A stretch of 63,010 nucleotides of DNA from a virus (IMGVR_UViG_3300025301_000010:1-63010), one strand, 5' to 3'; shown: positions 3,133 through 63,010, counted from the stretch's first letter. Program-made: numbers and translations. The notes: a model not told the origin generated them from the sequence alone.

Positions 3133-3141
3133 GCGTGCAAA

Positions 3142-17293: not shown

Positions 17294-17306
17294 GAGGAGC
17301 AAGCCC

Positions 17307-20441: not shown

Positions 20442-20450
20442 GAAATAATC

Positions 20451-21151: not shown

Positions 21152-21170
21152 CCGGTGAGACGGCCCGCGG

Positions 21171-21359: not shown

Positions 21360-21434
21360 CGTTAAGAGATATACGTCTAGGCGGACCCAGTCAAGCCCCG
21401 CTGAGCCGCAGTAGGTGCGCGCTGCGTAAAGGTG

Positions 21435-21463
21435 TTGACGTTTACCCTTAAGGGTGCTACATT
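21435..21463 (+). promoter_or_regulatory. Sigma70 promoter with a palindromic operator in the spacer
   Basis: TTGACG-17 bp-TACATT; perfect palindrome ACCCTTAAGGGT at 21444-21455. Confidence 0.8.
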
Positions 21464-21513
21464 AAGAGCATAACAAAAACCCTAAACCAAAGAGGAGGAA
21501 GGAGGAAACACTC

Positions 21514-21678
21514 ATGAACATGCGCCAATATGACCGAACACTAAAAGATAAGGATTATTACAACGCATTACGCTACATTGCGGTGTCACGTCGATACCGT
21601 CTACGCGGAGACCAACACACGGCCGACCTTTACCTGCTAAAAGTCGCCAACTTGCGAAAGCGCATGTCAGCCAGCTAA
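21514..21678 (+). CDS. 54-aa early protein (missing from the ORF track)
   Basis: Double GGAGG RBS; MNMRQYDRTLKDKDYYNALRYIAVSRRYRLRGDQHTADLYLLKVANLRKRMSAS. Confidence 0.75.
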   Translation: MNMRQYDRTLKDKDYYNALRYIAVSRRYRLRGDQHTADLYLLKVANLRKRMSAS

Positions 21679-21776
21679 GCCACCCACAACAAAAGGGGTC
21701 AGACATGGGCAAGCTATTAAGCGGAAGATCAAGAGCCCGGGGCACTCCCGGCATCCGAGGAGGAGGAGTAGTTCCC

Positions 21777-21965
21777 ATGCGGAAACCGAAAGATTACGAG
21801 CTGATTCGGTGTCCCGAGGCACGATCTAAGCGCACGCATAAACCAGCGCGGGTCTTCGAGGACGGGACGTTCGGTGTCTTGGGGCAACACGGTCATGGGC
21901 ATGCGGTGCCGCGCTGTCCCTATTCAAAACTGCCTGTCCGGATCATTCCACAGGAGGGCCGATAA
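21777..21965 (+). CDS. Small basic Cys/His protein
   Basis: GGAGGAGGAG RBS before ATG 21777; stop abuts the next ATG. Confidence 0.6.
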   Translation: MRKPKDYELIRCPEARSKRTHKPARVFEDGTFGVLGQHGHGHAVPRCPYSKLPVRIIPQEGR

Positions 21966-22658
21966 ATGGAGAGAGGGCAGTACGGAGAGATACAGAGGGG
22001 GACGATACGGCCGCAGACGCTCAAAACCTTGGACCGGCTGTTGCGGGGGGCTAGCCGATCGGAGCACATCGATGAACACGGCGGCTGGGTTTTCGATTGC
22101 GACTTCGACAGGCACGGCCGCGGCCACGCGACGAATTACGACTATTACGGGTACGGACGGGACTGCCATAGTCGTCGGCTGCTAGCTGTCATACAGATAC
22201 GCAGATTTACCCGGCAACGGAAAAACGGGTGGGGCAATCAGCGGAAATCGTATTTCTTGATCGGACGCAATGAGGACGAAACGTATTTCGCGCACCCGGT
22301 CAGCGCGGGCGTCATCCATAGCGCGATCAAATCCGGTCGCAATGTTGTTCGCGCCTGCCAGGATTGGATTTTCGGCGGCGATTATGGCCGCATGGTGCGC
22401 CAAGGCGACTTCGCGTTTCTGCCCGTACGGAAGCCGGGCGCAGATGCGCAGTGTGTCGCACCAGCGCGCATCTTGCAGGAAAGCCACTATCTTATTGCCG
22501 ACGAGGCGCGAAAAAACGGGCACCTCTACGCGAAGAACCCGAGCCTGTATCATCTGCCGGGGACGCATCCTGACCTCGAGAATCTTCCGGGATGGTGGCG
22601 GCTCATAGAGGGCCGACGCGGGCGCTTTTGGTCTTTCGCCGCGCCGACAGTGGATTAG
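21966..22658 (+). CDS. Uncharacterised phage early protein with an RQGD motif
   Basis: 230 aa with good RBS; RQGDFAFLP...SH...H..TH pattern. Confidence 0.7.
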   Translation: MERGQYGEIQRGTIRPQTLKTLDRLLRGASRSEHIDEHGGWVFDCDFDRHGRGHATNYDYYGYGRDCHSRRLLAVIQIRRFTRQRKNGWGNQRKSYFLIGRNEDETYFAHPVSAGVIHSAIKSGRNVVRACQDWIFGGDYGRMVRQGDFAFLPVRKPGADAQCVAPARILQESHYLIADEARKNGHLYAKNPSLYHLPGTHPDLENLPGWWRLIEGRRGRFWSFAAPTVD

Positions 22659-22731
22659 GTGGGGAGTCTTAAAAAAACGAACCCCGAGGATCGCCCGTAC
22701 GGGACGATCTCGGGCCACCCTATGTCTAGGC

Positions 22732-22986
22732 ATGGGCACGAATTGGGGTAATATGCGGGTAGCGACGAGTTTTGGTTGTGAGAGCTGCGGGCAAATTAGT
22801 CCGGCCTGTAGCAAAGGGGTGTGCAGTGTATGCGGATCGGCCGCGGTATACTGTCTGGCGCGACGGTCAGCCGCCGAGCAAGACCATTGGGACCGACAGC
22901 AGCGATACCACCGGCGCCGTGCGTACAGCAAAAGGCGGCGTCAAATCCTGCTGCCGGAGGCGCATCCGCGCGAGGAGGAGAGGTAA
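22732..22986 (+). CDS. Small Zn-finger-like protein
   Basis: CESC...C...CSVC; chained with the next ORF. Confidence 0.5.
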   Translation: MGTNWGNMRVATSFGCESCGQISPACSKGVCSVCGSAAVYCLARRSAAEQDHWDRQQRYHRRRAYSKRRRQILLPEAHPREEER

Positions 22987-23223
22987 ATGGTTTTACATTA
23001 CGGGTGTGGATGCCGCACGACGACACGGCGGACAGTAGGCGTGGTGTATGTCCCGCGCGTGTGCCAGCTCCACGAGCTGCCCCGTGTGACCGTGGAGAAG
23101 AAGTGTCAGCGGTGCCACAATTGGCATGCTGGCCGCTGTCGGGGCGTACCGATCGAAGTCGCGCTGATCGTGATCGGGTTGGTCGCGCTGATGGCTGCCT
23201 CTATCGTCGCCTGGACAATATAA
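22987..23223 (+). CDS. Small Cys-rich protein with C-terminal TM helix
   Basis: GAGGAGAGG RBS; CQRC..WH..RC motif and a hydrophobic tail. Confidence 0.6.
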   Translation: MVLHYGCGCRTTTRRTVGVVYVPRVCQLHELPRVTVEKKCQRCHNWHAGRCRGVPIEVALIVIGLVALMAASIVAWTI

Positions 23224-23237
23224 CGCCCGCGGAATTC

Positions 23238-23266
23238 TTGACGGCGGTAGGCGGGTCGGGTACTAT
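23238..23266 (+). promoter_or_regulatory. Sigma70 promoter for replication operon A
   Basis: TTGACG-17 bp-TACTAT, followed by a GC hairpin leader at about 23286-23323. Confidence 0.75.
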
Positions 23267-23361
23267 GGGGGTCAACCTTCTCTCCGCGGCGGGGGCCACT
23301 CTTCTCCTGGTGCCGCCCGCCGCACCCCCCCCTTGCCGGACAGGTAGAGTGCCTACAGACT

Positions 23362-23892
23362 ATGGGGGGCAACAAAAACAAAACTGTATCACGACCGGTG
23401 GCCGCCACAGCGAGTGGCGAGGCGGTGGCGAGCCTGGTATACCTACAGGCGCGTATGGCCGACCGCGCCGCCGAAAGGCTACTGGCTGCCGATTTGTTGC
23501 CGCCGGACCTGCCACACTCCCAATCCCACTCGCACGGGCGGTCGGCTGCTCCGATACGTGGGCCGCGGCTCACGGGGCATGCGGCAGGGCCGGAGAAAAT
23601 CTGCTGGGCGGTGCTTATGCGGGCGTTTGACGACCTCGACCGAGGGGGCCGGACAGGGGCGGCAGTCGGGACAAAACGGCAAAATGTACTAGCCGCACGC
23701 GATGCGCTGCGGTGGGTCTTACGGCCAGACCTGCCGTGTTTATTTTCGTTTTCAGAGGTTTGTTCTACGCTCGGCATTGACGTCACAGCAGCGCGCGCCT
23801 ACGCGCGGGACGTAGTGGCGCCCATTGTCGACCAGATGTACCCGCCGCACGCGACGGGGCGAGACGTGAGGAGGCGATATGGATTGGGATGA
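23362..23892 (+). CDS. Hypothetical protein, W/AVL..A...W......F..VC..LG family (copy 1)
   Basis: PEKICWAVLMRAFDDL...ALRWV...FSFSEVCSTLGID; similar to 34293-34793 and 34784-35146. Confidence 0.65.
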   Translation: MGGNKNKTVSRPVAATASGEAVASLVYLQARMADRAAERLLAADLLPPDLPHSQSHSHGRSAAPIRGPRLTGHAAGPEKICWAVLMRAFDDLDRGGRTGAAVGTKRQNVLAARDALRWVLRPDLPCLFSFSEVCSTLGIDVTAARAYARDVVAPIVDQMYPPHATGRDVRRRYGLG

Positions 23893-24289
23893 GTTCGTGG
23901 TCGAAGAAAAGAAGTACATGAGCACTGACGATGTCCCGGACGTCGGCGAAGTGGTCACGGTCACAGAGTGTGGCCGCGAGGAGATGGCTAACCGCAAGGC
24001 TGAGCAGGACCCGCGTGCGCCCGCGTACGTGACGAAACTGGTCTTGCATTTCGCCGAAAAAACGCCGGGCTTTGTCTGCAATCGTACACAAACGCGCGCG
24101 CTACAGCGGATCGTCGCGCCGAGTCCTGACACCGATGCGCTGATCGGACGTCAGATAATCCTGCGCCGCGTACCACTGCCGCAGGCATACAACGGGCATA
24201 GTCATACAGTCGAGATCGTGGCCGTGCCGTCGAGCCTCCCAGCCGCCCCGCCGCCGAGCGCACCTACAGCAGCGCCGGTGCCGCGCTGA
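23879..24289 (+). CDS. Putative ssDNA-binding or annealing accessory protein
   Basis: KY....D, K.VL.F....P..CN.T, DTD..IGR.I.L pattern typical of genes next to phage exonucleases; GAGGAGG RBS. Confidence 0.55.
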   Translation: MDWDEFVVEEKKYMSTDDVPDVGEVVTVTECGREEMANRKAEQDPRAPAYVTKLVLHFAEKTPGFVCNRTQTRALQRIVAPSPDTDALIGRQIILRRVPLPQAYNGHSHTVEIVAVPSSLPAAPPPSAPTAAPVPR

Positions 24290-24375
24290 GGCGACGTCGA
24301 CGCGGTCGGGGGTGACCCGCAGGACATCATTCAGGGAGACTGGCCTATAGTCCAACGGAAGAGGAGGAGGTCGAG

Positions 24376-25062
24376 ATGAAGTGGGACGAATTCACTCGGA
24401 CATTAAAAGTTCACCAAAAGTACCACATCGGCGGTCAGCAGGTGCCGTCCGTCACAACAGTTTTGCAAAATATCGGGTGGAAGACGGCTGGCTTGCTACG
24501 GTGGGCCGAGCGGATACACGCGGAAGACCGCGACCAAAACCAAGAACGGGACGCGGCTGCCGCCGTAGGGGCCACTGCGCATTATTTGGTGCAATGCTGG
24601 GTCAATGAGACGGAGCCTGACCTATCGAGGGTCGCGCCGATCCATGCGGAATTCGCGATGCAGGCTTATGCCAACTTCCAGCGGTGGGTGGGGCAAACCG
24701 AGGTGCAGCCGATAGCATCCGAGGTTAAAGTCTTGTCGGCCCAGTATCGCTATGGTGGGACCGCGGACCTGATATGTCAGATCGACGGCGTGCGGACGCT
24801 CGTCGACCTGAAAACGTCCGGCGGGGATACCGTGTACGCCGAAAGCAAAATCCAAGTGGCCGCCTATGCTCTCGCCTACAACGAGGAGCACGACGACGCG
24901 CCGGTTCGACGTCTGTGTGTGCTACAGATGGGCCGCGAGACGGGCGCCTGCGTCGCCCACTTTTTGTCGCCGGAGGAGTGGGCCGCCGGACAAGACGCGT
25001 TCCTGCGCGCGCGAGACTTGCACGAGCTACGCAAGACCCTCAACAAGAAGGCCCGCCGGTGA
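24376..25062 (+). CDS. PD-(D/E)XK exonuclease
   Basis: PSVTTVL, G...H, ASE, YGGTADL, LVDLKTS and Q..AYA motifs. Confidence 0.88.
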   Translation: MKWDEFTRTLKVHQKYHIGGQQVPSVTTVLQNIGWKTAGLLRWAERIHAEDRDQNQERDAAAAVGATAHYLVQCWVNETEPDLSRVAPIHAEFAMQAYANFQRWVGQTEVQPIASEVKVLSAQYRYGGTADLICQIDGVRTLVDLKTSGGDTVYAESKIQVAAYALAYNEEHDDAPVRRLCVLQMGRETGACVAHFLSPEEWAAGQDAFLRARDLHELRKTLNKKARR

Positions 25063-27224
25063 CGCCGGAGCGGTTTTTGGGGCTTGTGCGAGACCACGTC
25101 CCAGGGCTGACCGCGACAAAAAAAGAGGGTGAATATCTTGGCACGGTGCCGTGGCGGCCGGACACGCATCCTTCCTTAGCCGTAAATGTTACTAAAATGT
25201 GTTGGGTTGATCGCGGCACGCAAGACGCCGGTGGCTGGCTCAAATTTTGCGAGCGCGTCGGCGTGTCCGCTGATGATCTGCGCCGCGATGATAACTCGCA
25301 ACCGCAACCGCAACCGCAACCGCAACCGCGCACCGCGAGGGATGATCTCGACAAACTCCTTACCGACCGTAAAAAGCAGGGAGAGGCGGGGCTTCTTCCA
25401 AAGCCGCAACCGCGGCGGAATGGGAACCTGCCAGGGGCGACGATCGTCGAGACCTACGACTACACCGACGCGGCGGGGGCGCTGGTGCATCAGGTCGTGC
25501 GCCTGGAGCCCAAAACGTTCAGGCAGCGGCAATCCGATGGGAACGGGGGTTGGCTGTGGCATGCGCGCGGAGTCGAAACAGTCCCCTATCGACTGCCCGA
25601 GCTGTTAGACGCGGACAGGGTCTACATATGCGAGGGCGAGAAAGATTGCGACCTATTGCACGATCTCGGGTTCGCTGCCACTACGAACCCGATGGGCGCG
25701 GGCAAATGGCCGGAGCATTTCGCGCCGCATTTCCTGGACAAAGAAGTGGTATGTTTGCCAGATAACGACAGCCCAGGGCGTGCCCATATGCAGCAGGTCG
25801 CGGCCGCGCTCGAGCCGGTCGCACGTCGCGTGGTAGTGTGTACGCTACCGGGGCTTGCAGAGAAAGGGGACGTCGCTGACTTTTTGACCTCATACGGCGA
25901 AGAGGAGTTGCGCGAACATGTTGCGCTCGTGCTCGCGTATACGCCCACGGTAACGGTTGAAGCCGCGCCCCCGACGGGGCCGCCGGACTTGCTATGTCCT
26001 GACACAGTATGGTCTGGGCCATACTATAGCGCTGTAGCCGATACGCTCGGTGTCCGGTCGTGGGGGGTCTGGCTAGGGGCAACCGTTGCGGCTAGCGCCT
26101 GGCTCGGTCGCGCGGTGCGCACGCTATACCACGGGCCGCTACATTGTAACGTGTTTGGCCTGCTGGTGAGTGGGACCGGCGCAGGCAAATCTATTTGCAC
26201 AGAGACAGCGCGGGCGTTGCTCCCCCCAACGGTTCGGGCCGGAGACTCCCCACAGTCAGGCCAAGCGCTCGGCAACCTCATCGCGGACGTGGAGCGTGAC
26301 GGCGGCGAGATTATCGTAACACCGCAACCGGCGACGATGATCTGTGAAGAGTGGTCTAAACTAGCCCGACTCGGGAAAATGTCATACTCACACCTGTTAG
26401 AGGACATTAATAAACTGTATGACTTCCCCGTCGACCTAGAGCTAAACCGCTCCGATCGGGATAAGAAAGGTGGGCGTATCGTGTATCCGAACCCGGAGCT
26501 GACGATCTGCGCGACGACAACGACAGGACTGTTCCGCGAGGAGACAGACCGGCGGTTCATTCAGGGCGGGTTTATCAATCGTTTTTTGATTTTGCCGGGA
26601 GAGCAGCGGCGGTGGGCCTTCCACGATACGGGCCGGGCGTCGATGGACTATGCAAGGCTACCACCGATCCAACAGGCACTCGGGCCGCCGCCGGTCTGGC
26701 AGAGCCGAACGTCGATCTGGGCACACTATACACCCGACGCGGCCGAACGGCTGGTGGAATGGGGCAAGCGCTTCGAGGCCGAGATAATGAACGCCGTAGA
26801 CCAGCCGCCGGAGCTGGACGCATACAAACGCCTGCACGTCTATGCGCATAAGCTGTCGATGCTGTACGCGGCGCTCGACAAGCGGGATACGATAACCGTC
26901 GCCGACGTAGAATGCGCCGTGAGCGTGGTAGATACCTCCTGGCTGTGGTTGGATTTTTTGCTCGAAGATGTGGGCGTCCCAGAGCCGCCGTGGGTCGTAT
27001 ACGAAATGGAGCTCGCGGCAAAAGTGCGCCACAAGGTGGTGTCGCGTCCCGGCGAGTACACCCGGCGCGAGCTAAAAAAGCGCATACGGGGCGACAGCAA
27101 AAAGATCGGCCAAATTATAGAAACGCTCATCGAGGAGCACGACCTCATAGAAGACGTCAACCCTGCGCGCGGACATGCACTGCGCTTATACCCCCCGAGC
27201 GAGGGGTCAGCTGACAGGAGCTAG
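25059..27224 (+). CDS. TOPRIM primase fused to a DUF3987-like P-loop helicase
   Basis: EGEKD, PDND..G and GD..DF TOPRIM motifs; GTGAGKS Walker A, ICEE and GGFINRF; GTGA overlap start. Confidence 0.88.
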   Translation: MTPERFLGLVRDHVPGLTATKKEGEYLGTVPWRPDTHPSLAVNVTKMCWVDRGTQDAGGWLKFCERVGVSADDLRRDDNSQPQPQPQPQPRTARDDLDKLLTDRKKQGEAGLLPKPQPRRNGNLPGATIVETYDYTDAAGALVHQVVRLEPKTFRQRQSDGNGGWLWHARGVETVPYRLPELLDADRVYICEGEKDCDLLHDLGFAATTNPMGAGKWPEHFAPHFLDKEVVCLPDNDSPGRAHMQQVAAALEPVARRVVVCTLPGLAEKGDVADFLTSYGEEELREHVALVLAYTPTVTVEAAPPTGPPDLLCPDTVWSGPYYSAVADTLGVRSWGVWLGATVAASAWLGRAVRTLYHGPLHCNVFGLLVSGTGAGKSICTETARALLPPTVRAGDSPQSGQALGNLIADVERDGGEIIVTPQPATMICEEWSKLARLGKMSYSHLLEDINKLYDFPVDLELNRSDRDKKGGRIVYPNPELTICATTTTGLFREETDRRFIQGGFINRFLILPGEQRRWAFHDTGRASMDYARLPPIQQALGPPPVWQSRTSIWAHYTPDAAERLVEWGKRFEAEIMNAVDQPPELDAYKRLHVYAHKLSMLYAALDKRDTITVADVECAVSVVDTSWLWLDFLLEDVGVPEPPWVVYEMELAAKVRHKVVSRPGEYTRRELKKRIRGDSKKIGQIIETLIEEHDLIEDVNPARGHALRLYPPSEGSADRS
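25299..25328 (+). repeat. (CAACCG)5 microsatellite encoding a QP linker
   Basis: Five perfect hexamer copies inside the primase gene. Confidence 0.95.
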
Positions 27225-27236
27225 AGGGCAGCTCGG

Positions 27237-28298
27237 GTGAGAGAACTGTCCCTATTTTCAGGCGTAGGAGGCGGCCTCTTAGGGACGGGAACGTTAGGGT
27301 GGAGGTGTATTGGATATGTCGAAAACAACACGTATTGCCAGCGCATCCTCGGACAGCGGATCGCCGACGGCATCCTCGACGCCGCTCCGATCTTTGGCGA
27401 TATCCGAACATTCAATAGTGACGGGTACGCCGCGAGCTATACGGGCCTGGTTGATGTCGTCAGTGCAGGTTTCCCCTGCCAACCCTTCTCCACCGCAGGG
27501 CAGCGCAAAGGGGCAACCGACGAACGTAACATGTGGCCGTCCACCAGGGATACCATTCGTCTCGTTCGACCCCGCTACGCATTCTTGGAAAACGTCCCTG
27601 GACTTATTTCCAGCGGATATTTTGACACGATCCTCCGTGACCTGGCCGAAATCCGGTATGATGCACGATGGACAGTGCTGGGAGCGCACCATGTTGGTGC
27701 CCCGCATAAGCGGAACCGGCTCTGGATACTCGCTACCGACGCCGAGTGCGGTGAGCTACGGCACCAATCAGGGCGGGGGCATGGGGCGGACAGGGCCGCT
27801 GCGTCTCTGGACACGATGGCCCGTCAGAACATGTGGCCGACGCCAAGCGGTCACCGCCGGGGGGGCGGAAGCCACTCCACCCAGCCGTCTTCGGCCCAGC
27901 GGTCACAAGCGGCAGATCACCCTGCAGGATGCGGTGCGGTGGCCGAGCCCCAAGGCCAGCGACTCCAAGGGGACGGGACCAGTTGGCAGCAAGAGCCAAA
28001 TACACGACAACCGAAAAAAGAATCTGAGAGGCATAACGGCTCTATGGGCGACACCGAACACGGGCGATGCGACCAGGGGCTCGCCGGAGACAGCCGACGA
28101 CAAGAGAGCGAGAGGGGCGCATACCGGGGAAAGCCTAATAGACCAAACTGGTGGGCAACTGAACCCGCCGTGGGTCGAGTGGCTCATGGGGTGGCCGCTC
28201 GGGTGGACCGACTTAAAGCCCTTGGGAATGGACAAGTACCGGCAGTGGCAGCAGCAGCATGGCGTATATTAACCGACATGGAGGACGTAAAGAAATGA
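27237..28298 (+). CDS. DNA (cytosine-5) methyltransferase, alpha chain
   Basis: Motif I LFSGVGG, IV GFPCQPFS, VI ENV, VIII HKRNRLWI and X LKALGNGQVP; no motif IX in this frame. Confidence 0.92.
   Translation: MRELSLFSGVGGGLLGTGTLGWRCIGYVENNTYCQRILGQRIADGILDAAPIFGDIRTFNSDGYAASYTGLVDVVSAGFPCQPFSTAGQRKGATDERNMWPSTRDTIRLVRPRYAFLENVPGLISSGYFDTILRDLAEIRYDARWTVLGAHHVGAPHKRNRLWILATDAECGELRHQSGRGHGADRAAASLDTMARQNMWPTPSGHRRGGGSHSTQPSSAQRSQAADHPAGCGAVAEPQGQRLQGDGTSWQQEPNTRQPKKESERHNGSMGDTEHGRCDQGLAGDSRRQESERGAYRGKPNRPNWWATEPAVGRVAHGVAARVDRLKALGNGQVPAVAAAAWRILTDMEDVKK
27310..28272 (+). CDS. Overlapping-frame beta chain of the C5 MTase (M.EcoHK31I-type)
   Basis: Nested +1 frame ORF with LPTP/WPSP/WATP repeats and motif IX-like GQLNPPWVEWLMGWP.GWT; true start uncertain. 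Confidence 0.75.
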   Translation: MDMSKTTRIASASSDSGSPTASSTPLRSLAISEHSIVTGTPRAIRAWLMSSVQVSPANPSPPQGSAKGQPTNVTCGRPPGIPFVSFDPATHSWKTSLDLFPADILTRSSVTWPKSGMMHDGQCWERTMLVPRISGTGSGYSLPTPSAVSYGTNQGGGMGRTGPLRLWTRWPVRTCGRRQAVTAGGAEATPPSRLRPSGHKRQITLQDAVRWPSPKASDSKGTGPVGSKSQIHDNRKKNLRGITALWATPNTGDATRGSPETADDKRARGAHTGESLIDQTGGQLNPPWVEWLMGWPLGWTDLKPLGMDKYRQWQQQHGVY

Positions 28299-28573
28299 CC
28301 ACTCGTTTACATCTCGCAACAGCCGTCTTATGCGGCAATTCGATCTGTCAAAATCCTGCAGACGTTTGCCAGGAAATCTACGACATTAACGATCCGTGTT
28401 GTCCTGGATGTGGGAGCTACACGTCCCACCCGATATCGATGTGGATTCCGGCATCCAGTCCCCCACGGCAATTGATGGAGGACCGCCGCGAACACGCAAT
28501 CCCGTTACTGGACGTCATCACCGAAGGGAGTACCGATGGAACAGAAAGAGACCTGGTTAGCACAACGCCGTAA
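28295..28573 (+). CDS. Small Zn-ribbon protein
   Basis: C....C and CPGCGS motifs; ATGA-coupled to the MTase stop. Confidence 0.6.
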   Translation: MTTRLHLATAVLCGNSICQNPADVCQEIYDINDPCCPGCGSYTSHPISMWIPASSPPRQLMEDRREHAIPLLDVITEGSTDGTERDLVSTTP

Positions 28574-29492
28574 GTGCATTACCGCAACCGATGTGGCAAA
28601 AATCTTAGGGCTGGCCCCGTGGGGATCACCCCACTCTGTTTGGCGCGATAAATTGGGCCGAGAGGAAGATGGTCCGCCCAGCCCAGCTATGCGTCTCGGC
28701 GTGGAAATGGAGCCGCGCATCGTGGACGATTACGTCAGCAGACATGACGGTGTCGAGTTGATCGATCCTGGCCGATACCAGCTGGTGACCCATCCCCAGC
28801 ACCCCTGGATCGCTTGTACCCCTGACCGTGTCTATGCCGATCGCTCCTGCGGTCTGGAGTGCAAATACGTCCTTGGCAGTCAACGCTACTGGTCCGAAGA
28901 GAAACCTGCCAACCACGCTTTTCTGCAGGCACACTGGTGTATGATTGCGATGCAAATCCCACGATGGGATATCGCCGCCTGGGTGGGCAACCGCTACTAT
29001 GAATATAACCTCGTCGCCAACGCAGAACTCCACAAAACCTTGGTTGACCAGTGTCAAGCCTATCTGGACCGCTACATCCTTGGCGATGAAGAGCCCGATC
29101 TTGACGGATCGCCGCAAACATCCGCCTATCTCTCAAACCTATTCGAGGACATCACGGAGGAAATGTTGGTCCCCCCCGAGGCGGTCACCGTCGATGCCCG
29201 TCGCTACCGCGATATCCTTGCGGAGGAACGAGATCTGAAAACCGAAAAAGAGCATCTCAAACAAGGATTTGCCAAAAAGATAGGGGACGCCACAGGATTT
29301 GAAAGTGAGGAATTCGTCCTGACGTATCGACGGACAAAGCCGTCTCAGAAGATCGACATACGCACATTTGTTGCCTCAGTAGAGGATGTCTTAGGGCAGG
29401 ACAAAACTGCAGATCTTGTCCAACGCCACACCACAGAAACCCCAGGAACACGTCGTATTGCACTCAAATTCAGGGAGGATATCAATGGCTAG
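28536..29492 (+). CDS. YqaJ/lambda-exonuclease-family recombinase exonuclease
   Basis: WL..RR..I.ATDVA.ILG..PW, G..ME, HP..PWI..TPDR and LECK motifs. Confidence 0.93.
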   Translation: MEQKETWLAQRRKCITATDVAKILGLAPWGSPHSVWRDKLGREEDGPPSPAMRLGVEMEPRIVDDYVSRHDGVELIDPGRYQLVTHPQHPWIACTPDRVYADRSCGLECKYVLGSQRYWSEEKPANHAFLQAHWCMIAMQIPRWDIAAWVGNRYYEYNLVANAELHKTLVDQCQAYLDRYILGDEEPDLDGSPQTSAYLSNLFEDITEEMLVPPEAVTVDARRYRDILAEERDLKTEKEHLKQGFAKKIGDATGFESEEFVLTYRRTKPSQKIDIRTFVASVEDVLGQDKTADLVQRHTTETPGTRRIALKFREDING

Positions 29493-30210
29493 TCTCAGCG
29501 AATTTTTACACGGCTTAGTTCCGACACTCGTGGAATCCATGGAGGACGGGAGCGAACAACAAGCTAAACGCCTCTGTCAGCAATTACTGGGCGCAGCCCG
29601 GAATAACCCCCGCATCGCGCAATGCGATGGGCGGTCTGTTGGGCAGGTCGCTGTCCAGCTTGCCACACTCGGGTTTGAACTGCGGGACGGAGAAGTCTAT
29701 TTGGTGCCGCGAGGAAAAACCCTCACCCTTGAGGTCGGCTACAAGGGCATGATTGGTGCCTTATACCGTGGAGCGGTCATCGAGTCGATTAACGCTGGCG
29801 TACGGCGGGAGGGAGACGAGTGGGACTGTGATCGCGGATCACAGGCATTCATTCGGCACAAACCTGCAATGGGCCCAGAGCGCGGCGAGATCACCGACTA
29901 TTACGCCCTCGCGATCTTGGAGGGCAGTGGGCGGACACTCTGGGAGTCGATGACCGTCGAGGAAATCGAGGAGATCCGAAATTTAGCGCCCGGCGGGAAG
30001 AGCACCGCTTGGCGGAACCATTTTGACGAGATGGCAAAAAAGACCGTCTTAAAACGACTAATGAAGGTCTTACCCCGGAAAAAAGGGAACGCACTCTTAG
30101 CAACTGTGGAAGAACATGATAACATGGCATATCGGGAACATTCCGGCGACCAGGCCGATGACATTATCAACCACATAGCAGAGGAGGGATCAAATGGCGA
30201 CCGAAATTGA
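29485..30210 (+). CDS. recT: RecT-family ssDNA annealing protein
   Basis: YLVP, GYKGMI and W..HFDEMAKKTVLKRL.K.LP; follows YqaJ; GGAGG RBS. Confidence 0.92.
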   Translation: MASLSEFLHGLVPTLVESMEDGSEQQAKRLCQQLLGAARNNPRIAQCDGRSVGQVAVQLATLGFELRDGEVYLVPRGKTLTLEVGYKGMIGALYRGAVIESINAGVRREGDEWDCDRGSQAFIRHKPAMGPERGEITDYYALAILEGSGRTLWESMTVEEIEEIRNLAPGGKSTAWRNHFDEMAKKTVLKRLMKVLPRKKGNALLATVEEHDNMAYREHSGDQADDIINHIAEEGSNGDRN

Positions 30211-30523
30211 TGTGTCCATCGATCCGGCACGGGTGCGTCCGTACAAGGGGAAAGAGGGCTCAAAACTTAAAGCATTTTGCAATGTCACCATCGGGCCGGT
30301 CACAATCAATAATTGTCGGATCGTTGATGGTATGCATGGACCATTTGTTGGCTTCCCGGAGGGGGAAGTCTACACCGATAAAAACGGCGATGAGAAGCGT
30401 CAGCGGTATATATGGATTGAGGATAAAGCCGTGATGGACGCCTGCAATGAAGAGGCGGAACGGGCATTAGAAGCTCTCGGTGATCATGGGACGGAAGCCC
30501 CATCCGATGACATCCCGTTCTGA
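30194..30523 (+). CDS. SpoVG-like nucleic-acid-binding protein with an SSB-type acidic tail
   Basis: LKAF.NV......I....IV.G..G.FV.FP; C-terminal DDIPF. Confidence 0.8.
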   Translation: MATEIDVSIDPARVRPYKGKEGSKLKAFCNVTIGPVTINNCRIVDGMHGPFVGFPEGEVYTDKNGDEKRQRYIWIEDKAVMDACNEEAERALEALGDHGTEAPSDDIPF

Positions 30524-30552
30524 CTGTAGGGGTCACAATGATTGCATCTCAC

Positions 30553-30681
30553 GGCACCCCGAGTACCCCTCTCGGATGCCTGGGGAGCGGACGACGGGGG
30601 TCGGTTTCATCTCCCCCGCCTCCTTGTCGTCCGCCATAACGGGACCAGAGGGCTTTACATCCTTTCGGCCCTCTGGCCCGT
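30553..30681 (+). ncRNA. Three tandem hairpins (structured leader or sRNA candidate)
   Basis: Stems 30553-30563/30571-30580, 30587-30600/30621-30634 and 30639-30653/30668-30681. Confidence 0.45.
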
Positions 30682-30729
30682 ACAACAACCTGATAGGAAG
30701 TTCATTTTGCACTGAGGAGTACCACGAGC

Positions 30730-31521
30730 ATGGCGCTACGATATAATTGGCACCGCATATCCCACGAGTTTAACCGCGATCCTGAAATCCGATCTCTCCG
30801 TGAGCAGTACCACGACTGGATGGCGCTGGTCTGGATCGAAATGCTCTCCCAGGCTGACCGGCACGAAGGTGTCATCAAAGGCACCTACGACGAGATCGCG
30901 CTACAATTGGCGTACATTTCCAACTCAAAGCGGCCCAGTACAGCAGTGAAATGTATCCGAAATGCGCTGGATTTCATGGAGGAACGTCAATGGATTACAC
31001 GACAAAGTGGGTCTGTTCTCGTAGTTAAGTACCCGGAATATCATACAAACCAAATAGCCAAAAAACAAAAACGGCGGCGACAACAAGACAAGACTATACA
31101 AGACAAGACTATACACCAAGAGAAAACCAACAAAGAAAGTGTGGTGGGCGCGGGAGAAACATCAATTGCGGCTTATCCCGAACGATTCATCCCCGTATGG
31201 GAGGCATACCCTATCGGCAAGCGGGTGCGGATGGGTGATGCCGAACGGGCGTGGAATAAGATTCAGGGGTGGAATCATACGGTGCCAATCCTATCCGGAA
31301 TCGCACGGTGGCTGGCTTCGCCTAACTGGACGGCGGATGACGGGCAGTACATCCCCCGCATCGCCGACTTCTTATTGTGTAAAATCTACCTGGATACGCC
31401 CCAACCGCCCATGACCGAACATATCGTGGACGAGATAGACGACGATCTCGATATTGAGGATGAGATGACCGACGTGGCTAAAGTGGGTGAGGTGGGTGGA
31501 GCGTGCCATGGAGACGTATAG
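30730..31521 (+). CDS. Replication initiator / replisome organizer
   Basis: N-terminal wHTH-like region, low-complexity linker, F...W.AYP..K...A..AW and YIP...FL C-domain; upstream of DnaB. Confidence 0.8.
   Translation: MALRYNWHRISHEFNRDPEIRSLREQYHDWMALVWIEMLSQADRHEGVIKGTYDEIALQLAYISNSKRPSTAVKCIRNALDFMEERQWITRQSGSVLVVKYPEYHTNQIAKKQKRRRQQDKTIQDKTIHQEKTNKESVVGAGETSIAAYPERFIPVWEAYPIGKRVRMGDAERAWNKIQGWNHTVPILSGIARWLASPNWTADDGQYIPRIADFLLCKIYLDTPQPPMTEHIVDEIDDDLDIEDEMTDVAKVGEVGGACHGDV
31084..31113 (+). repeat. 15-bp tandem repeat, possible origin iteron
   Basis: CAAGACAAGACTATA x2 in an A-rich stretch inside the initiator gene. Confidence 0.55.
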
Positions 31522-32815
31522 CCACGAAGCTGCCCTCCTCTCGTGCATCCTGATGGACAACACGGTCCTGGATGCGTGCCGCACGCAAGTCGAACCCGAT
31601 GATTTCGGCTATCTACCGCATCGTAAAATATGGGAGTCGATGTGTCAGTTAGGCGACCAACGCGATGCTATCGATCTGGTGACCGTCGAGCATGGGCTCC
31701 GCACGGCACGAGAGTTAGACAGCATTGGCGGGGTCACCTATCTACTCACCGTACAGGAGGCCGTCCCGAGTGCGGCTAATTACGGGGATTACCTCAAGCT
31801 CACACTGGAAGACGCGAAGCGCAGAGCGGCAGATCGTCAGGCGCAGAAAGTGCTGGAAGTCGCAGATGGAGATCGAAAACTCGATGCGCTGGGGGCGATT
31901 GAGGACATTGTCCGAGACCGGGCGACTATCGGCCGTCCAACCTACTGGACGCTGGAACAGTCGATTCGTGAGACGTTAGAGAAAGTCGATGCGCTTGATG
32001 GCCATACCGGAGAGCTGACCGGACTCCCGTCCGGACTGATTGATCTGGATCGCATTACCTGCGGATTTCAGGATTCCGAGCTCGTTGTGATTGCTGCGCG
32101 ACCAGGGCTCGGGAAGACATCACTCGCCTTACAAATCGCGATACGGACCGCACGCGAGACGGGGAAACGGGTCGCCTTTTTCTCCTTGGAAATGGCACGG
32201 GCAGCGATTACACAACGCATCCTCTGCAGTGATGCCCGTATTGACTCGAACGTGGTTCGGGCTGGGCGCATGAATGCGGAAGAGCGTAATCGTCTAGCAG
32301 AATCCGCCCTGCGGAATTCACCGCTCCCCGTGGTCATTGAAGACCGGAGTGATCTCACCCTCGACAATATCCGCGCCATGGCGCGATCACTGACACGAGA
32401 AAAAGAGGTGTCGTTAATCGTGATCGACTACCTCCAACTGATGCGCGGTCAGCGGCGAGATGGGCGGCAACAAGAAATTGCAGAGATTTCGCGTGGTCTG
32501 AAGGGCCTCGCAAAAGAACTCGATATTCCCATTGTCGCTCTCGCGCAGTTGAACCGCCAGAGCGAATTGCGGACAGATAAACGGCCGGTATTGGCGGATC
32601 TACGTGAGTCTGGCCAGATCGAGCAGGATGCGGATCTCGTGATTTTTTTATATCGCGATGAGATGGTCAATCCTGACAGTCTGGACACTGGTATCGCAGA
32701 GTTGATCGTTGCCAAACATCGCAACGGCCCAACCGGATCAGTCAAAGTCCGATTCACTCCGGTGTGGACACGATTTGATAATCTCGCCGCCGTAGAGGAG
32801 ATGGACTATGCCTAA
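31508..32815 (+). CDS. dnaB: Replicative DNA helicase
   Basis: AARPGLGKT, FSLEM, IDYLQLM, LAQLNR, DLRESGQIEQDAD and KHRNGPTG. Confidence 0.97.
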   Translation: METYSHEAALLSCILMDNTVLDACRTQVEPDDFGYLPHRKIWESMCQLGDQRDAIDLVTVEHGLRTARELDSIGGVTYLLTVQEAVPSAANYGDYLKLTLEDAKRRAADRQAQKVLEVADGDRKLDALGAIEDIVRDRATIGRPTYWTLEQSIRETLEKVDALDGHTGELTGLPSGLIDLDRITCGFQDSELVVIAARPGLGKTSLALQIAIRTARETGKRVAFFSLEMARAAITQRILCSDARIDSNVVRAGRMNAEERNRLAESALRNSPLPVVIEDRSDLTLDNIRAMARSLTREKEVSLIVIDYLQLMRGQRRDGRQQEIAEISRGLKGLAKELDIPIVALAQLNRQSELRTDKRPVLADLRESGQIEQDADLVIFLYRDEMVNPDSLDTGIAELIVAKHRNGPTGSVKVRFTPVWTRFDNLAAVEEMDYA

Positions 32816-33269
32816 TGAGGACGGTCACTTGCGTCTCAAGCCTATCACGCTGAGAGAAGCTAGTGCTTACGTTAAGGCTTATCACCGACACCATAAACCC
32901 TCTATCGGACATAAATTCTCTATTGGAGTGGTGGATGGAACTTCTTTGGAGGGTGTAATTACCGTAGGTCGTCCCGTAGCCCGTAATCTAGACAATGGCT
33001 GGACAGCAGAAGCTACCCGCTGCTGTACTAATGGACGGCGCAACGCCGCCTCTATGTTGTATGGTGCAGCGCGTCGTGCCGCTAAGGCGATGGGCTATAG
33101 ACTTATTATCACCTACACGCTGGCGTCAGAGCCAGGCACCTCGCTGAAAGCAGCGGGATGGCAATCAACGCCCCTGAAAATGAGAGGGGAATGGGATTGC
33201 CCTAGTCGCCCTCGACAGATTGGATTGTTTCCGGCTGAATCTAAGATCAGATGGGAAAGTATACTATGA
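32808..33269 (+). CDS. XF1762-family (GNAT-like) protein
   Basis: HRHHKP..GHKFS, GRPVAR.LD.G.T.E..R.CT and ITYTL.SE.G.SL.A.GW. Confidence 0.85.
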   Translation: MPNEDGHLRLKPITLREASAYVKAYHRHHKPSIGHKFSIGVVDGTSLEGVITVGRPVARNLDNGWTAEATRCCTNGRRNAASMLYGAARRAAKAMGYRLIITYTLASEPGTSLKAAGWQSTPLKMRGEWDCPSRPRQIGLFPAESKIRWESIL

Positions 33270-33469
33270 ATAGTAACCGCGCTGAGACACTCAACGAATT
33301 CCGCCGTGTGGCGTGCAAAAATGACCACCACCCCACGTTCGTCGCTGCACGGGAGGATGGGTATTGCCGCGACTGTCATATGTATAGGGTGGAAACAGAG
33401 AACCGAGGGTGGCGATTCCTGTTTACCCTGTTCAGTGGGATGACGATCGCCTATCTCATATTCGCGTAA
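33266..33469 (+). CDS. Small membrane protein
   Basis: C..CH motif plus C-terminal TM; ATGA coupling. Confidence 0.5.
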   Translation: MNSNRAETLNEFRRVACKNDHHPTFVAAREDGYCRDCHMYRVETENRGWRFLFTLFSGMTIAYLIFA

Positions 33470-33478
33470 GGAGAGATT

Positions 33479-33967
33479 ATGAAAGTCCAAAAAACAAACG
33501 CACGGGTGCAGGGGATTTCCGATGAAATTCGGTGCGTGTATCCGCATATTACAAAAGGCTTCTCGAAATTGGAACGAGGGACTATCCTCCGCGCCTACTA
33601 TCGGCCGCTCCTGGAAGTATCGACGGACTACTGGGACGCTATTATGGAGGAATTCCACCGCCTCTCCCGGTATGTGCGACCCGCGAACATGTATGAGGCC
33701 ATTGAAACCATTGTAGGCGCAGAGTATCCCGAACCCCGTCCGAGTCTCCAGCGCACGCAACATACGGCATTCGAGGAGCTGCAAATCCATGAAGGTCAAG
33801 ATCGCAGATGGGAACAAAGGCGACGGCAGTGGGTCAGGGACAAAATATCACGCGACAAAAATCAGAAACTGGGAACGAGTAAGACGCCCGTGCCCAGCGT
33901 GCAACCAGGCGATGTATCTAATGGACACGCCACAGCACAAATCCTGGAGATGCGACCCGTGTCGTAG
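33479..33967 (+). CDS. Hypothetical protein (possible helicase loader/inhibitor-like)
   Basis: AAGGAG RBS; helical; located in the replication cluster. Confidence 0.5.
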   Translation: MKVQKTNARVQGISDEIRCVYPHITKGFSKLERGTILRAYYRPLLEVSTDYWDAIMEEFHRLSRYVRPANMYEAIETIVGAEYPEPRPSLQRTQHTAFEELQIHEGQDRRWEQRRRQWVRDKISRDKNQKLGTSKTPVPSVQPGDVSNGHATAQILEMRPVS

Positions 33968-33995
33968 TCTGTATATCGGCTGGTCTATTGAATGA
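33789..33995 (+). CDS. Zn-ribbon protein overlapping the upstream ORF
   Basis: CPAC...CDPC; GAGGAG RBS; ATGA-coupled to rusA. Confidence 0.5.
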   Translation: MKVKIADGNKGDGSGSGTKYHATKIRNWERVRRPCPACNQAMYLMDTPQHKSWRCDPCRSLYIGWSIE

Positions 33996-34423
33996 GCCAA
34001 GCGGCATCTCCAAAGGATCAGCAGTTTTTTATCCCCGGCGTTTTTCCGTCAGAAAACCAATGGCTGGGCTGGGCGAAGAAACATTGGTCCGTCTACAAAA
34101 AGGAACATGACGCCCATAAAGGACGGGTGATGGCTGCGCTAATAGAGGCACGGATTATCGCGCCCCCAGCGTATCCTGTTATACTGATATTCCGGTGGAT
34201 AGAAAAACACGGAAGACGGGATTTGGATAACGTCGCCGCCGGAGGTCGCAAGATTATCATTGATGGGTTGGTGGATAGAGGTGTGATGCCGGATGATACA
34301 AGGCGGTACGTATGCGGATTTACAGACGAGTTCCCGACCCCTGACAAAGAAAAGTCAGGGGTCTGGGTCACGATACGTGCGGCGGAAATCACCACTGTTG
34401 GGCCTCACGGCATGGCCGACTAA
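33992..34423 (+). CDS. rusA: RusA-like Holliday junction resolvase
   Basis: PS.N and RRDLDN....K..IDGL...G..PDD. Confidence 0.85.
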   Translation: MSQAASPKDQQFFIPGVFPSENQWLGWAKKHWSVYKKEHDAHKGRVMAALIEARIIAPPAYPVILIFRWIEKHGRRDLDNVAAGGRKIIIDGLVDRGVMPDDTRRYVCGFTDEFPTPDKEKSGVWVTIRAAEITTVGPHGMAD

Positions 34424-34793
34424 AGCGTGGCAAGGCCGAGGACCATCCATCGACGTACTCGACATTGCCGGAGTTGCCCCTCTCCAAGCCACGTCGCCGG
34501 AACAACATCTTTGGCAAGCCGTTCTCGCGGAAGCATTGCGTTGCGTGCTGATGGGTGCCTATGTGAGAGATCGTGTCTCACAAGACCGTCCCGCTGGCCG
34601 AATGCGGTTACGGGACGAAGCGATTGCCTGGGTCAATTCAGACGAAGAGGGGTTCCCCTCAGTCTGTGAGTTTGCGGGAGTAGAGCCCTCCTATATCCGG
34701 AAGTTATTCCAGGGATTCCTTCAGCCTAGCACTCGCCAGAATCGAACAGCCCGAAACATTCTCACCCGTGTGCGGCGGAGGTCATGGGGGTAG
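34293..34793 (+). CDS. Hypothetical protein, same family as 23362 (copy 2)
   Basis: PEQHLWQAVLAEALR...EAIAWVNSD...FPSVCEFAGVEPSYIRK; start uncertain. Confidence 0.65.
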   Translation: MIQGGTYADLQTSSRPLTKKSQGSGSRYVRRKSPLLGLTAWPTKAWQGRGPSIDVLDIAGVAPLQATSPEQHLWQAVLAEALRCVLMGAYVRDRVSQDRPAGRMRLRDEAIAWVNSDEEGFPSVCEFAGVEPSYIRKLFQGFLQPSTRQNRTARNILTRVRRRSWG

Positions 34794-35146
34794 CTGTGGC
34801 CCCGAGCTTTATTGACCCTGCTGTCGAGGATGCCTCCCGCCCATCTTCGCCTGCCTGGCAGGACATGGGCGAATATCGTCTAGTGCAGCGTCTGATGTAC
34901 GACGCTTTTTTCCTCCGTTACCGACTCATCCAATGTCATTACGACGGAGGGCGAAAAACAAAAACACAGCACCGGGTTGACCGACAGTGGGTGCGTTCAG
35001 AGAGCCGCGCTGCGTTTTCGTTTTGTTGGTGCTGTGAGGTCTTGGGCCTTTCTCCCGGCTATACTCGGACTGCGTATTGGGCGGCAGAGCCCGTCGTCCC
35101 GCTCAACCACTCAGCAATGCTCCCCGATGTCAAAGGGTCATATTAA
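34784..35146 (+). CDS. Hypothetical protein, same family (copy 3)
   Basis: EYRLVQRLMYDAF...RQWVRSE...FSFCWCCEVLGLSPGYTR. Confidence 0.65.
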   Translation: MGVAVAPSFIDPAVEDASRPSSPAWQDMGEYRLVQRLMYDAFFLRYRLIQCHYDGGRKTKTQHRVDRQWVRSESRAAFSFCWCCEVLGLSPGYTRTAYWAAEPVVPLNHSAMLPDVKGSY

Positions 35147-35217
35147 TTCAATTATCGTATTAATTTGAATAGTCCGTAAAAACAGGGACTTAAAAGAGGT
35201 GCTCGAGGCGATTGTTA

Positions 35218-35457
35218 TTAGTGTACGGTGTGGGAGAAATCACGGAACTCGATACCTGCGATAAAATGGAATATGCTATGACAGTACGTACACCGCAGCA
35301 CCATCACGTCTCGCGGACCGACAGTCGAGACCAGATTCTCGCACTCCCCCATACCATCGATCAGGAAGGTACAATCGAATTCTTGCAAATGGGCTTTGCA
35401 TGTCAGGCAGGACAATGGTCCCCGGATGATATGGACGGCGCACTCTTCGTCAACCAT
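35218..35457 (-). CDS. Small Zn-ribbon protein, last gene of the module B strand
   Basis: CLTC...CTYC; follows the phosphoesterase on the minus strand. Confidence 0.5.
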   Translation of the reverse strand: MVDEECAVHIIRGPLSCLTCKAHLQEFDCTFLIDGMGECENLVSTVGPRDVMVLRCTYCHSIFHFIAGIEFRDFSHTVH

Positions 35458-35483
35458 ATGTTTGTATCATTACGACTCCGCAC

Positions 35484-36305
35484 CTAGAGGGTGACCACGT
35501 CGATTTTGTTCTTTTTCCGTACTGCCCGATAGACCTTCCCGTACACGTGCGTCCGCATGCGCGAAGCCGCTTCCTTGATATAGAGAAGCTGCTCGACGCG
35601 AAAATATCCCCCTTCAGAGAAATCAATCAGGCTAAATCCGTTTTGCCATTTACTGTACCCAATCCACCGCGACGTATTGCGGACATCATGGATTGCGGGG
35701 ATCTGTTCTAACGTCGCATTCACAAAACTGCCCAGGATCGACTGACTGTGAGAAAATTCCTGATGATAGTACGAATCAAAGCGGTGGTGATGACCACACA
35801 TCGAATTGCCGCTCCGATGCATAAAATTCATTTTTGCCACATGGGCCGCTCGTGTGTTGATTTCATGCCCGTGGAAAAACCACATCTTTTTGACACGCAT
35901 GGGTGTCTGTCGCACATGGAGGATATCCGTCGCGTCAAATTGAAACAGATGATTCATGGTGAGAATGTTGAGATCCTCTTCCTGTAGCGCGGCCAGTTCT
36001 GGCGTGCGTTGCCAGATGTGATATTCCAGTCGCTCTTCGTGATTGCCGTTAAAATAGGTGATGGGAATATCACCCACAGTGTTCCGCAGGGCGCGGAGTT
36101 CTTTGCGGGAGTGTCGGATCTGATCCCCTAACGCGAGTTTCTCATGCGGGGCGGCTTTGAAAATAGAAAGTGGTCCCAGGTCAATAACATCCCCGCCCAG
36201 GATGACATGATCGATGGGCAGATCTTTCAGGATCGCTTTTGTAAGTGCCCAGGCGTAGGGGCATTCGTGATCAAAATGGATATCTGATAAAAATGCGAGG
36301 AGCAT
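35484..36305 (-). CDS. Calcineurin-like metallophosphoesterase
   Basis: SDIH, GGDVID, GNHE, HGH and GHHHR; GGGGGAG RBS before ATG 36305. Confidence 0.92.
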   Translation of the reverse strand: MLLAFLSDIHFDHECPYAWALTKAILKDLPIDHVILGGDVIDLGPLSIFKAAPHEKLALGDQIRHSRKELRALRNTVGDIPITYFNGNHEERLEYHIWQRTPELAALQEEDLNILTMNHLFQFDATDILHVRQTPMRVKKMWFFHGHEINTRAAHVAKMNFMHRSGNSMCGHHHRFDSYYHQEFSHSQSILGSFVNATLEQIPAIHDVRNTSRWIGYSKWQNGFSLIDFSEGGYFRVEQLLYIKEAASRMRTHVYGKVYRAVRKKNKIDVVTL

Positions 36306-36333
36306 AACTCCCCCCTTCCGACTCCCCTTTCGG

Positions 36334-36657
36334 CTACACCACGCGGCGGTCTTTGATAGAGACCTTCGGGATGGTGACATCGCCCCCAGCAGCGTCGTCC
36401 GTCACGGACGAGACTAGGGTGATAAAATCATTGGTTTCGTTGACGAGAAACCCGACGGTATGGACAATGGCGGGTTCTAAATCCGCAATGTCTTGCGGAG
36501 AACTCCACGGGCTTGTGAGGGAGGCGGAATCGATCCACTGGACATAGTGGACTTCACACATGTCTTCATTGACTTCTTCACTGATTTCTTCGTCATCCGA
36601 CGATTCCTCCTGGCCCTCATTGTTCGCTGCTAGTATCAGGTCCGCTAGTTTCGTCAT
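36334..36657 (-). CDS. Conserved small phage protein (Sm/SH3-like pattern)
   Basis: V.W.DS....W, TVGFL......ITL and IP...I. Confidence 0.65.
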   Translation of the reverse strand: MTKLADLILAANNEGQEESSDDEEISEEVNEDMCEVHYVQWIDSASLTSPWSSPQDIADLEPAIVHTVGFLVNETNDFITLVSSVTDDAAGGDVTIPKVSIKDRRVV

Positions 36658-36883: not shown

Positions 36884-36895
36884 ATTGTACTCCCC

Positions 36896-37787: not shown

Positions 37788-37796
37788 CGGATTCCT

Positions 37797-41612: not shown

Positions 41613-41616
41613 TGTC

Positions 41617-62993: not shown

Positions 62994-63010
62994 CGTTATG
63001 CAGTCTACAC

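Follow-up and report, generated by a model that had tools for sequence, protein, structure and literature searches.

IMGVR_UViG_3300025301_000010 is a viral record of marine metagenome origin that consists of a single contig of 63,010 nucleotides (nt), which was analysed here over its whole length and is referred to as the window. The contig is composed of three gene blocks: virion genes on the plus strand at 1–21.1 kb, early genes on the plus strand at 21.7–35.5 kb and virion genes on the minus strand at 35.5–63.0 kb. The early genes, which are the subject of this work, comprise two replication and recombination toolkits in tandem on one strand, on either side of a C5 DNA methyltransferase (C5-MTase) gene and one small open reading frame (ORF), an arrangement that a preliminary description of the window had proposed and that Pfam and PHROG annotation confirmed. 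The virion genes form two non-homologous sets of single-copy genes in the one contig, so that TerL, portal, major head protein and tape measure are each present twice. We refer to the phage on the left as A and to that on the right as B.

All early genes lie on the plus strand. Those of A begin with a small Cys/His-rich ORF of 86 amino acids (aa) that was recognized from its translation (21705–21965) and that we termed gene X. Further downstream lies the gene for a hypothetical phage protein of 136 aa (23879–24289), which had been described as resembling a single-stranded DNA-binding protein (SSB); this label found no support, as the protein had no match in Pfam or PHROG, to an SSB or OB-fold family or to any other, and its Atlas neighbours were unnamed viral clusters. 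The A toolkit continues with a PD-(D/E)XK exonuclease (24376–25062; PF12705, 1.3e-5; phrog_298, 6.8e-28) and a primase-helicase (25059–27224, with the ORF open from 24774 and a 721-aa form in databases; DUF3987, 3.3e-10; phrog_239, 2.3e-24; phrog_5311), the stop codon of which is separated by a 12-nt gap from the C5-MTase ORF of 353 aa (27237–28298; PF00145, 6.3e-33, residues 1–170; phrog_363, 3.7e-63). The MTase stop codon in turn overlaps, in an ATGA at 28295–28298, the start of a small Cys-rich ORF of B (28295–28573), of which a 104-aa form starting at 28259 was absent from the protein collection. Together with a search for attachment-site-like (att-like) repeats around the junction that returned only imperfect matches of 16–31 nt, these distances bear out the tight or overlapping gene spacing and the lack of an att-like scar noted before.

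The B toolkit comprises a YqaJ/RecE-like exonuclease (28536–29492; PF09588, 1e-18, 68.5 bits against a cut-off of 22; phrog_434, 1.4e-56) and a RecT annealing protein (29416–30210; PF03837, 3.4e-31, 108.8 bits against a cut-off of 24), followed by a small protein with weak likeness to SpoVG (30194–30523; PF04026, 1e-5, 26 bits, under the cut-off of 29.6), an initiator or DnaD-like helicase loader (30730–31521; phrog_9327, 8.4e-13; phrog_9474, 3.6e-10; Phage_rep_org_N, 6e-4, under the cut-off), the DnaB replicative helicase (31487–32815; PF03796, 1.7e-95; PF00772, 6.7e-21), a Mom-like DNA modification protein (32808–33269; phrog_1384, 3.9e-36; PF25680, 3.6e-5, under the cut-off) and a RusA-like Holliday junction resolvase (33992–34423; phrog_1682, 3.6e-17). 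The YqaJ and RecT genes are adjacent and both score above their Pfam cut-offs, as expected of a RecET or YqaJ–RecT module; as in the Lambda Red and Rac RecET systems, an exonuclease gene, here of the YqaJ family, adjoins a RecT-family gene, and the initiator, DnaB and RusA genes follow. This order is a common early layout in temperate phages. The B module has no close relatives: its DNA had no match in the phage collection, and a search for YqaJ relatives in viral contigs returned none. The Mom-like gene stands right after dnaB and is encoded by B besides the C5-MTase. A scan of 20.4–37 kb for promoters and terminators was uninformative: promoter-like sites numbered 11 (9.0 expected) and terminator-like sites 22 (14.5 expected, standard deviation (sd) 4.8).

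Analysis of base composition revealed a sharp break at the MTase gene. The preliminary description had judged by eye that GC content and CGCG density fall after about 28 kb and had placed a junction between A and B in or next to the MTase; both proposals held, and the drop proved sharper than guessed, with 58.8% GC at 1–27236 versus 55.0% at 28299–63010 and with CGCG at 13.6 per kb (observed/expected (O/E) ratio 1.85) on the A side versus 5.6 per kb (O/E 0.97) on the B side. In a strand-symmetric tetranucleotide likelihood scan, the change-point check that had been suggested, the best single split fell at 27,250–28,250, that is, on the MTase, with a log-likelihood ratio (LLR) of 1305, compared with a mean of 209 (sd 24, maximum 276) in 200 block shuffles; secondary splits within the halves reached an LLR of 290 and 345 at most. 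A compositional break is thus present, and it coincides with the gene at which the two toolkits meet.

To this change in composition corresponds a step in abundance. At least half of the sampled words of 23001–33000 were present in 15 sequencing runs, and Logan contigs of four runs (X4, X15, X16 and X18) were aligned to 18001–38000. In X4, an independent run, contigs identical to the window over 18001–27329 had mean depths of 40.3, 36.1 and 41.3, and contigs over 27300–38000 had depths of 144.5, 149.6, 159.5, 153.4 and 140, a 3.6-fold difference between the A and B sides in values that are Logan per-contig k-mer means and not read-level coverage. The two series overlap by 30 nt, at 27300–27329 within the first 93 nt of the MTase, so that the depth switch lies in the gene named as the junction. 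The exact 30-mer at 27300–27329 had 0 matches in viral, metagenome and genome contig collections, outside of which near-identical records possibly lie. The 144.5× contig of X4 (27300–28167) differs from the window in 21 letters and 2 indels, all of them in 27351–27551; the B-depth contigs of X15 and X18 carry the identical differences in this interval, and their next difference to the window is at 30228.

Contigs of other runs further revealed what precedes the MTase in B. In X4, a contig of depth 124 joins a stretch like 21888–21970 to position 27238, and a record of X15 (record 3, depth 7.47) covers 21816–21970 with 8 differences. B is present in X15 on contigs of 4,570 nt (depth 9.4) and 15,007 nt (depth 8.3), and A only as exact fragments of 172–268 nt with depths of 2.5–3.5; the run contains 0.57 of the words of 23001–33000, and B makes up an equal part, 57.6%, of that stretch. 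The match of the 4,570-nt contig to the window begins at the second base of the MTase start codon (27238), and the 346 nt of the contig to the left of this position are unlike the window. B has its own sequence upstream of the MTase, including a homolog of gene X of A. No contig bridging the primase-helicase into YqaJ was found among the contigs listed, although contigs cannot prove absence. X16 and X18 yielded only B-like pieces at 90–99% likeness, with almost nothing over 18–27 kb, a gap that was for the same reason not used as evidence. Runs X16–X20 had small shares of the words and were left out of account for habitat and strain.

Two observations on these contigs concern gene X and the 3′ part of the MTase gene. 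Besides the stretch homologous to gene X (21816/21888–21970) found upstream of the MTase of B in other runs, B-like contigs of X16 and X18 contain another gene X homolog, which adjoins 36883 and is oppositely oriented, and gene X looks like a mobile small gene. In addition, a 44-nt stretch at 28149–28192, which encodes conserved residues in both MTase frames described below, was matched at 90% or more by many unrelated contigs in marine runs, giving summed bin depths of about 640 in X16, 327 in X4 and 192 in X18. Because this stretch attracts contigs of other organisms, the MTase gene is a natural tangle point for assemblers.

Comparison with database proteins revealed two versions of the MTase, which are 97% identical and have different flanks, in agreement with the earlier suggestion that both parents share this gene. 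The amino-acid changes of the B-type proteins P0001 and P0127 (353 aa, 97%) match the variant letters of the B-depth contigs in 27265–27530. Since the B-depth contigs of X4, X15 and X18 and these proteins share their variants relative to the window, the window is not B-type in 27351–27551. The A-type proteins P0007 and P0125 (343 aa) follow the +1 frame of the window over 27316–27804, with 163 of 163 residues identical for P0125 and 162 of 163 for P0007; past 27804 they switch to the MTase frame of the window with three further substitutions, and after the residues AAWRILT, at approximately nt 28275, they end in an unrelated tail of 22 residues. The frame switch implies a frame-changing indel near 27804, and in A one MTase chain, or both, may be broken. 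A run of seven G residues (27859–27865) lies 55 nt downstream of 27804, and relative to the nested protein of the L002 type the +1 frame of the window has a short out-of-frame patch between 27804 and 27859–27865.

The cassette common to A and B extends over 27238–28275 (about 1.04 kb, approximately 97% protein identity), from the second base of the start codon to about 20 nt before the stop codon, and the MTase flanks of A and B are unrelated outside 27238 to about 28275. Within it, 253 nt (27552–27804) are identical in both versions and form the interval in which the switch from A to B lies. The window is A-type from its first position up to and including 27,551, and by 27,804 at the latest it is B-type, which it stays to its end. 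The MTase gene in the contig is a hybrid, with an A-type 5′ part and a B-type 3′ part.

Protein records also place A and B on contigs of their own. The A-type MTases P0125 and P0007 are on contigs of 29,939 and 32,586 nt, respectively; the A primase-helicase is 100% identical to P0128, found on 39 contigs, the longest of 32,586 nt; and for exact variants of the A exonuclease the longest contigs are 32,586 and 32,528 nt. The exact TerL of B is found on 40 contigs, the longest of 44,143 nt. In full, A is probably about 32.5 kb long and B probably about 44 kb. A length of 63,010 nt was the longest contig only for protein variants of JGI/IMG, the source of the record of the window itself. A member sourced from NCBI was found in all four A-side clusters checked (primase-helicase, portal, exonuclease and A-type MTase) versus 0 of 7 B-side clusters.

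We conclude that the contig is very probably an in-silico chimera of two co-occurring marine siphoviruses, joined across the near-identical MTase cassette of about 1.04 kb. The tandem double toolkit is most likely not a real element, each toolkit belonging to its own phage. Two virion modules, a composition break, a depth step, a separate sequence upstream of the MTase of B, and A-type and B-type MTases on separate contigs are observed, and they amount to the signs by which a chimera is recognized, that is, an abundance step, a composition change point, a shared near-identical repeat at the join and each parent found alone elsewhere. The preliminary description had left open whether the junction was a crossover or a mis-assembly point; of the two, mis-assembly is much better supported, because A and B are found elsewhere on contigs of their own, and their depths differ.

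In the proposed course of events, A would supply 1 to about 27.5 kb, that is, its virion genes, exonuclease and primase-helicase and then the MTase, and B would supply about 27.8 to 63.0 kb, in which the MTase heads the rightward operon (YqaJ, RecT, initiator, DnaB, Mom-like protein and RusA) and the leftward virion module follows. The MTase cassette would be present in both phages with identical stretches longer than the assembler k-mer (for example, 27552–27804), so that the assembly graphs of A and B would merge in the cassette and the contig path, entered from A, would be left into B. As the identical stretch of 253 nt is longer than any usual k-mer, the graphs of the two genomes merge in it, and a path can cross between genomes. 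Inter-genome chimeric contigs arise in metagenome and virome assemblies by way of a repeat shared between co-occurring genomes. The contig is like them in that genomes of differing abundance and composition are joined in a near-identical segment longer than k, the parents are found separately elsewhere and single-copy markers are doubled; it is unlike them in that the repeat is exactly one gene cassette, from the start codon to near the stop codon.

Several findings weigh against an assembly artefact. A minority of real A–B molecules at about 40× together with free B at about 100× would give the same depth step, and the sum of the contig depths upstream of the MTase of B and on the A side, 124 + 41 = 165, versus the 140–160 observed, does not separate a chimera from a minor real hybrid. 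Runs X1–X3, the possible source runs of the record, contain 0.97–0.98 of the words, compared with 0.94–0.96 in eleven others of the 15 runs, so that their contigs do include the hybrid variant. A and B occur together in all 15 of these runs, and the B to A depth ratios of X4 and X15 are of similar order. The linkage of proteins to contigs rests on equal longest-contig sizes in protein records, not on contig DNA. Finally, the contig ends just upstream of terminase genes on both sides, 43 nt before the ATG of the A TerS (1–43) and 17 nt before the ATG of the B TerL (62994–63010).

Part of this evidence would also suit a real join, in which homologous recombination in the shared MTase cassette of co-infected cells produced an A–B hybrid or cointegrate that was correctly assembled. 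A cassette of 1 kb at about 97% identity is ample substrate, B encodes YqaJ and RecT, the two phages co-occur in 15 runs, homologs in the tail-fibre cassette at 69–76% nt identity suggest a common host, and the database holds mosaic MTase variants (P0121, and P0122, which combines A-type middle variants with the B 3′ end). Such mosaics are, however, equally expected from bubble-by-bubble assembler consensus. Moreover, two virion modules in at least 63 kb (about 77 kb for a cointegrate) exceed the capsid capacity inferred from genomes of about 32 and about 44 kb, a different sequence lies upstream in most B molecules (the depth-124 contig of X4 and the contig of X15), A has its own sequence downstream of the MTase, and contigs of 63,010 nt are confined, as the longest, to the JGI/IMG variants. 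We consider a real recombinant improbable. There is a correspondingly slim chance that the dual-frame MTase cassette is a portable recombination hotspot at which unrelated phages of one host fuse or swap genome arms, aided by YqaJ and RecT of B; if it were, the 63-kb contig would be a captured cointegrate or arm-swap intermediate.

Very improbable, in our view, is a faithful contig of two adjacent prophages or prophage remnants in a bacterial chromosome. Adjacent prophages are common in bacterial chromosomes, and the co-occurrence of A and B across samples would fit such a pair; nevertheless, the 63 kb yielded neither an integrase or tRNA nor an att-like repeat or bacterial gene in any part, the order with the terminases outermost and the early genes between them is the opposite of the usual prophage permutation, the contig depths of A and B differ in X4, and the junction lies inside an intact gene. 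A single large phage that truly acquired a second toolkit by module duplication is the least probable of all, since the genes on one strand, their tight spacing and an MTase ORF intact across the join are offset by the need for two complete virion modules as well, by the composition break and the depth step, and by 30 distant relatives of the primase-helicase, none of which had a second toolkit within 10 kb (a DnaB-like match was found in 1 and a RecT-like match in 1). Relatives carrying both toolkits were accordingly not among these 30 loci, which, at 26–48% identity, are too remote to show the true flanks of A or B, as are the two loci returned by a search for the context of the MTase.

If the contig is a chimera of A and B, it would nonetheless pass as a single 'high-quality' 63-kb viral genome. 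The hybrid ORF is left intact at the join, so gene calling gives no warning, and it would be wrong to infer anything from the contig on redundancy in the replication machinery, on genome size or on host range. Duplicated virion markers together with a k-mer change point and a depth step on one shared gene offer a practical diagnostic.

The MTase gene in which A and B are joined has an unusual organization of its own. The PF00145 profile matches residues 1–170 with 115 bits (cut-off 22), covering profile positions 1–164 of 324. Alignment with ten relatives revealed conservation of the N-terminal 170 residues and of approximately 45 residues at the C-terminal end, which include GNGQVP (phrog_32758), and a middle that is hypervariable in sequence and length. 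Catalytic motifs I–VIII lie within residues 1–170, with FSGxGG, PCQ and ENV visible in the alignment. A second ORF is nested in the +1 frame on the same strand (27310–28272, 320 codons open; phrog_1008, 'DNA methyltransferase', 1.6e-28; phrog_26627, 4.4e-15). It encodes PTP-type repeats and a C-terminal LNPxWVEWLMGWPxGWT, which, by our assignment, resembles motif IX. A search of PDB sequences with the +1 ORF returned only chance-level matches to ribosomal proteins and no MTase. As a separate observation, the MTase gene (27237–28298) contains 1 CGCG (O/E 0.11) and 4 GCGC (O/E 0.45) despite a GC content of 60.6%, and far more of these words occur in both flanks.

Conservation of the nested frame was examined in the best 80 of 580 relatives (584 matched stretches) from viral contigs, of which 6 with an ORF below 600 nt from the start of the match were dropped, leaving 74 genes; addition of the window and L001 gave a set of 76. 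In the 74 genes, the +1 frame held a mean of 2.93 stops versus 7.24 in synonymous-codon shuffles, and the +2 frame was undepleted (15.47 versus 15.18 stops); the motif pattern of the end of the nested ORF was found in 55 of 74. Per decile of gene length, the 76 genes had 95, 28, 0, 0, 0, 0, 0, 0, 4 and 97 stops in the +1 frame, where about 280 would be expected in deciles 3–8. All 76 genes were free of +1 stops over 20–80% of their length, compared with an average of 2.6% among shuffles. Comparison with L001 over 27237–27596 revealed that third codon positions are the least conserved (11–16 of 30, versus 20–26 of 30 for the first and second positions). The catalytic half thus evolves in the MTase frame, and the +1 frame is an additional conserved constraint. 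We considered whether the nested ORF is a frameshifted or mis-called MTase and rejected this, as the MTase frame is supported in the catalytic half and the +1 frame is open in all relatives.

M.EcoHK31I is a heterodimeric C5-MTase whose beta chain is encoded wholly within the alpha gene in another frame, with motifs I–VIII, motif X and the target recognition domain (TRD) in alpha and motif IX in beta, and information on its structure is lacking (PMC2836561). The family described here resembles this alpha/beta type by its architecture, with an alpha ORF carrying motifs I–VIII and the GNGQVP end, an ORF nested wholly inside it (27310–28272 in 27237–28298) and a motif IX-like end, and the nested ORF is a candidate beta subunit. 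The two differ in that the TRD of M.EcoHK31I is assigned to alpha, whereas here TRD-like PTP repeats are found in the nested frame and the middle of alpha is hypervariable. Gene callers report one frame only (alpha as phrog_363, the nested frame as phrog_1008), and such MTase loci are consequently under-annotated in a systematic manner.

The remainder of the contig consists of the two virion modules. The nearest relatives in the phage collection were of the Halomonas/Ralstonia/P27 type for the TerL of A and of the Bordetella BPP-1 type for the TerL of B, at 43–44% identity in both cases, and megablast searches of 1–21000, 21000–36000 and 38100–63010 against the same collection returned no match. 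No exact terminal repeats of at least 10 nt, direct or inverted, were found at the contig ends, and a tRNA scan of the contig found none. The virion module of A (1–21151, plus strand) was annotated from PHROG matches, including phrog_83 (1.4e-44), phrog_9 (2.3e-154), phrog_12 (2.5e-120), phrog_53 and phrog_10. It encodes TerS (44/5–520), TerL (498–2222), an HNH-like protein (2219–2734; phrog_452), the portal (3112–4422) and a protease, the major head protein (4878–6620) followed by adaptors, tail terminator and major tail protein, the tape measure (10888–14934; tape-measure PHROG families) and a tail fibre (17736–20441), and it also holds ORFs of 131 and 109 aa. None of the 25 ORFs in the A part of the window was recognizable as a lysis gene in PHROG annotation, which fits with about 5 kb of A not being present in the contig.

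The leftward genes of B (35484–63010, minus strand; Pfam and PHROG annotation) lie in the part covered at depths of 140–160 in run X4. In order of coordinate they encode a metallophosphoesterase (35484–36380), a tail fibre (37797–41174), a tape measure of 2008 aa (44618–50644), the major head protein (56205–57314), the portal (58230–59696), an endolysin-like protein (59699–60208), an HNH-like protein (60190–60585; phrog_452) and TerL (61455–62993); scaffold and neck proteins are also encoded in the module, and no TerS of B was found within the contig. An MTase variant with the B 3′ end is on a contig of 35,765 nt, close to the length of the B part of the window (35,773 nt); the right-hand contig break may be reproducible, at either a physical genome end or another repeat. 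An HNH-type endonuclease of phrog_452 stands beside terminase or portal genes in both phages, and the two HNH genes are linked by nt similarity in two short patches, one of 50 nt (76%) and one of 39 nt (77%).

The head, tail and replication genes of A and B are unrelated, and what the phages have in common is the MTase cassette and a tail-fibre cassette. The latter lies on opposite strands with its gene order kept and comprises 17294–17726 and 41175–41625 (76% nt identity), 19843–19975 and 38329–38461 (75%), and 20451–20821 and 37414–37787 (69%). Tailed phages are modular mosaics in which exchange takes place at gene boundaries. The homology of A to B is of this kind, as it runs from the MTase start codon to near the stop codon between unrelated flanks, with the tail-fibre block as a second instance; such mosaicism applies between the two real phages and does not make the 63-kb join real. 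Together with the co-occurrence of A and B, the shared cassettes suggest that these phages infect the same or related hosts and may exchange modules at gene boundaries. The MTase cassette is part of a large phage C5-MTase family in which a nested +1-frame ORF is conserved, and its sharing between A and B at about 97%, along with that of the tail-fibre genes, points to recent exchange in a common host.

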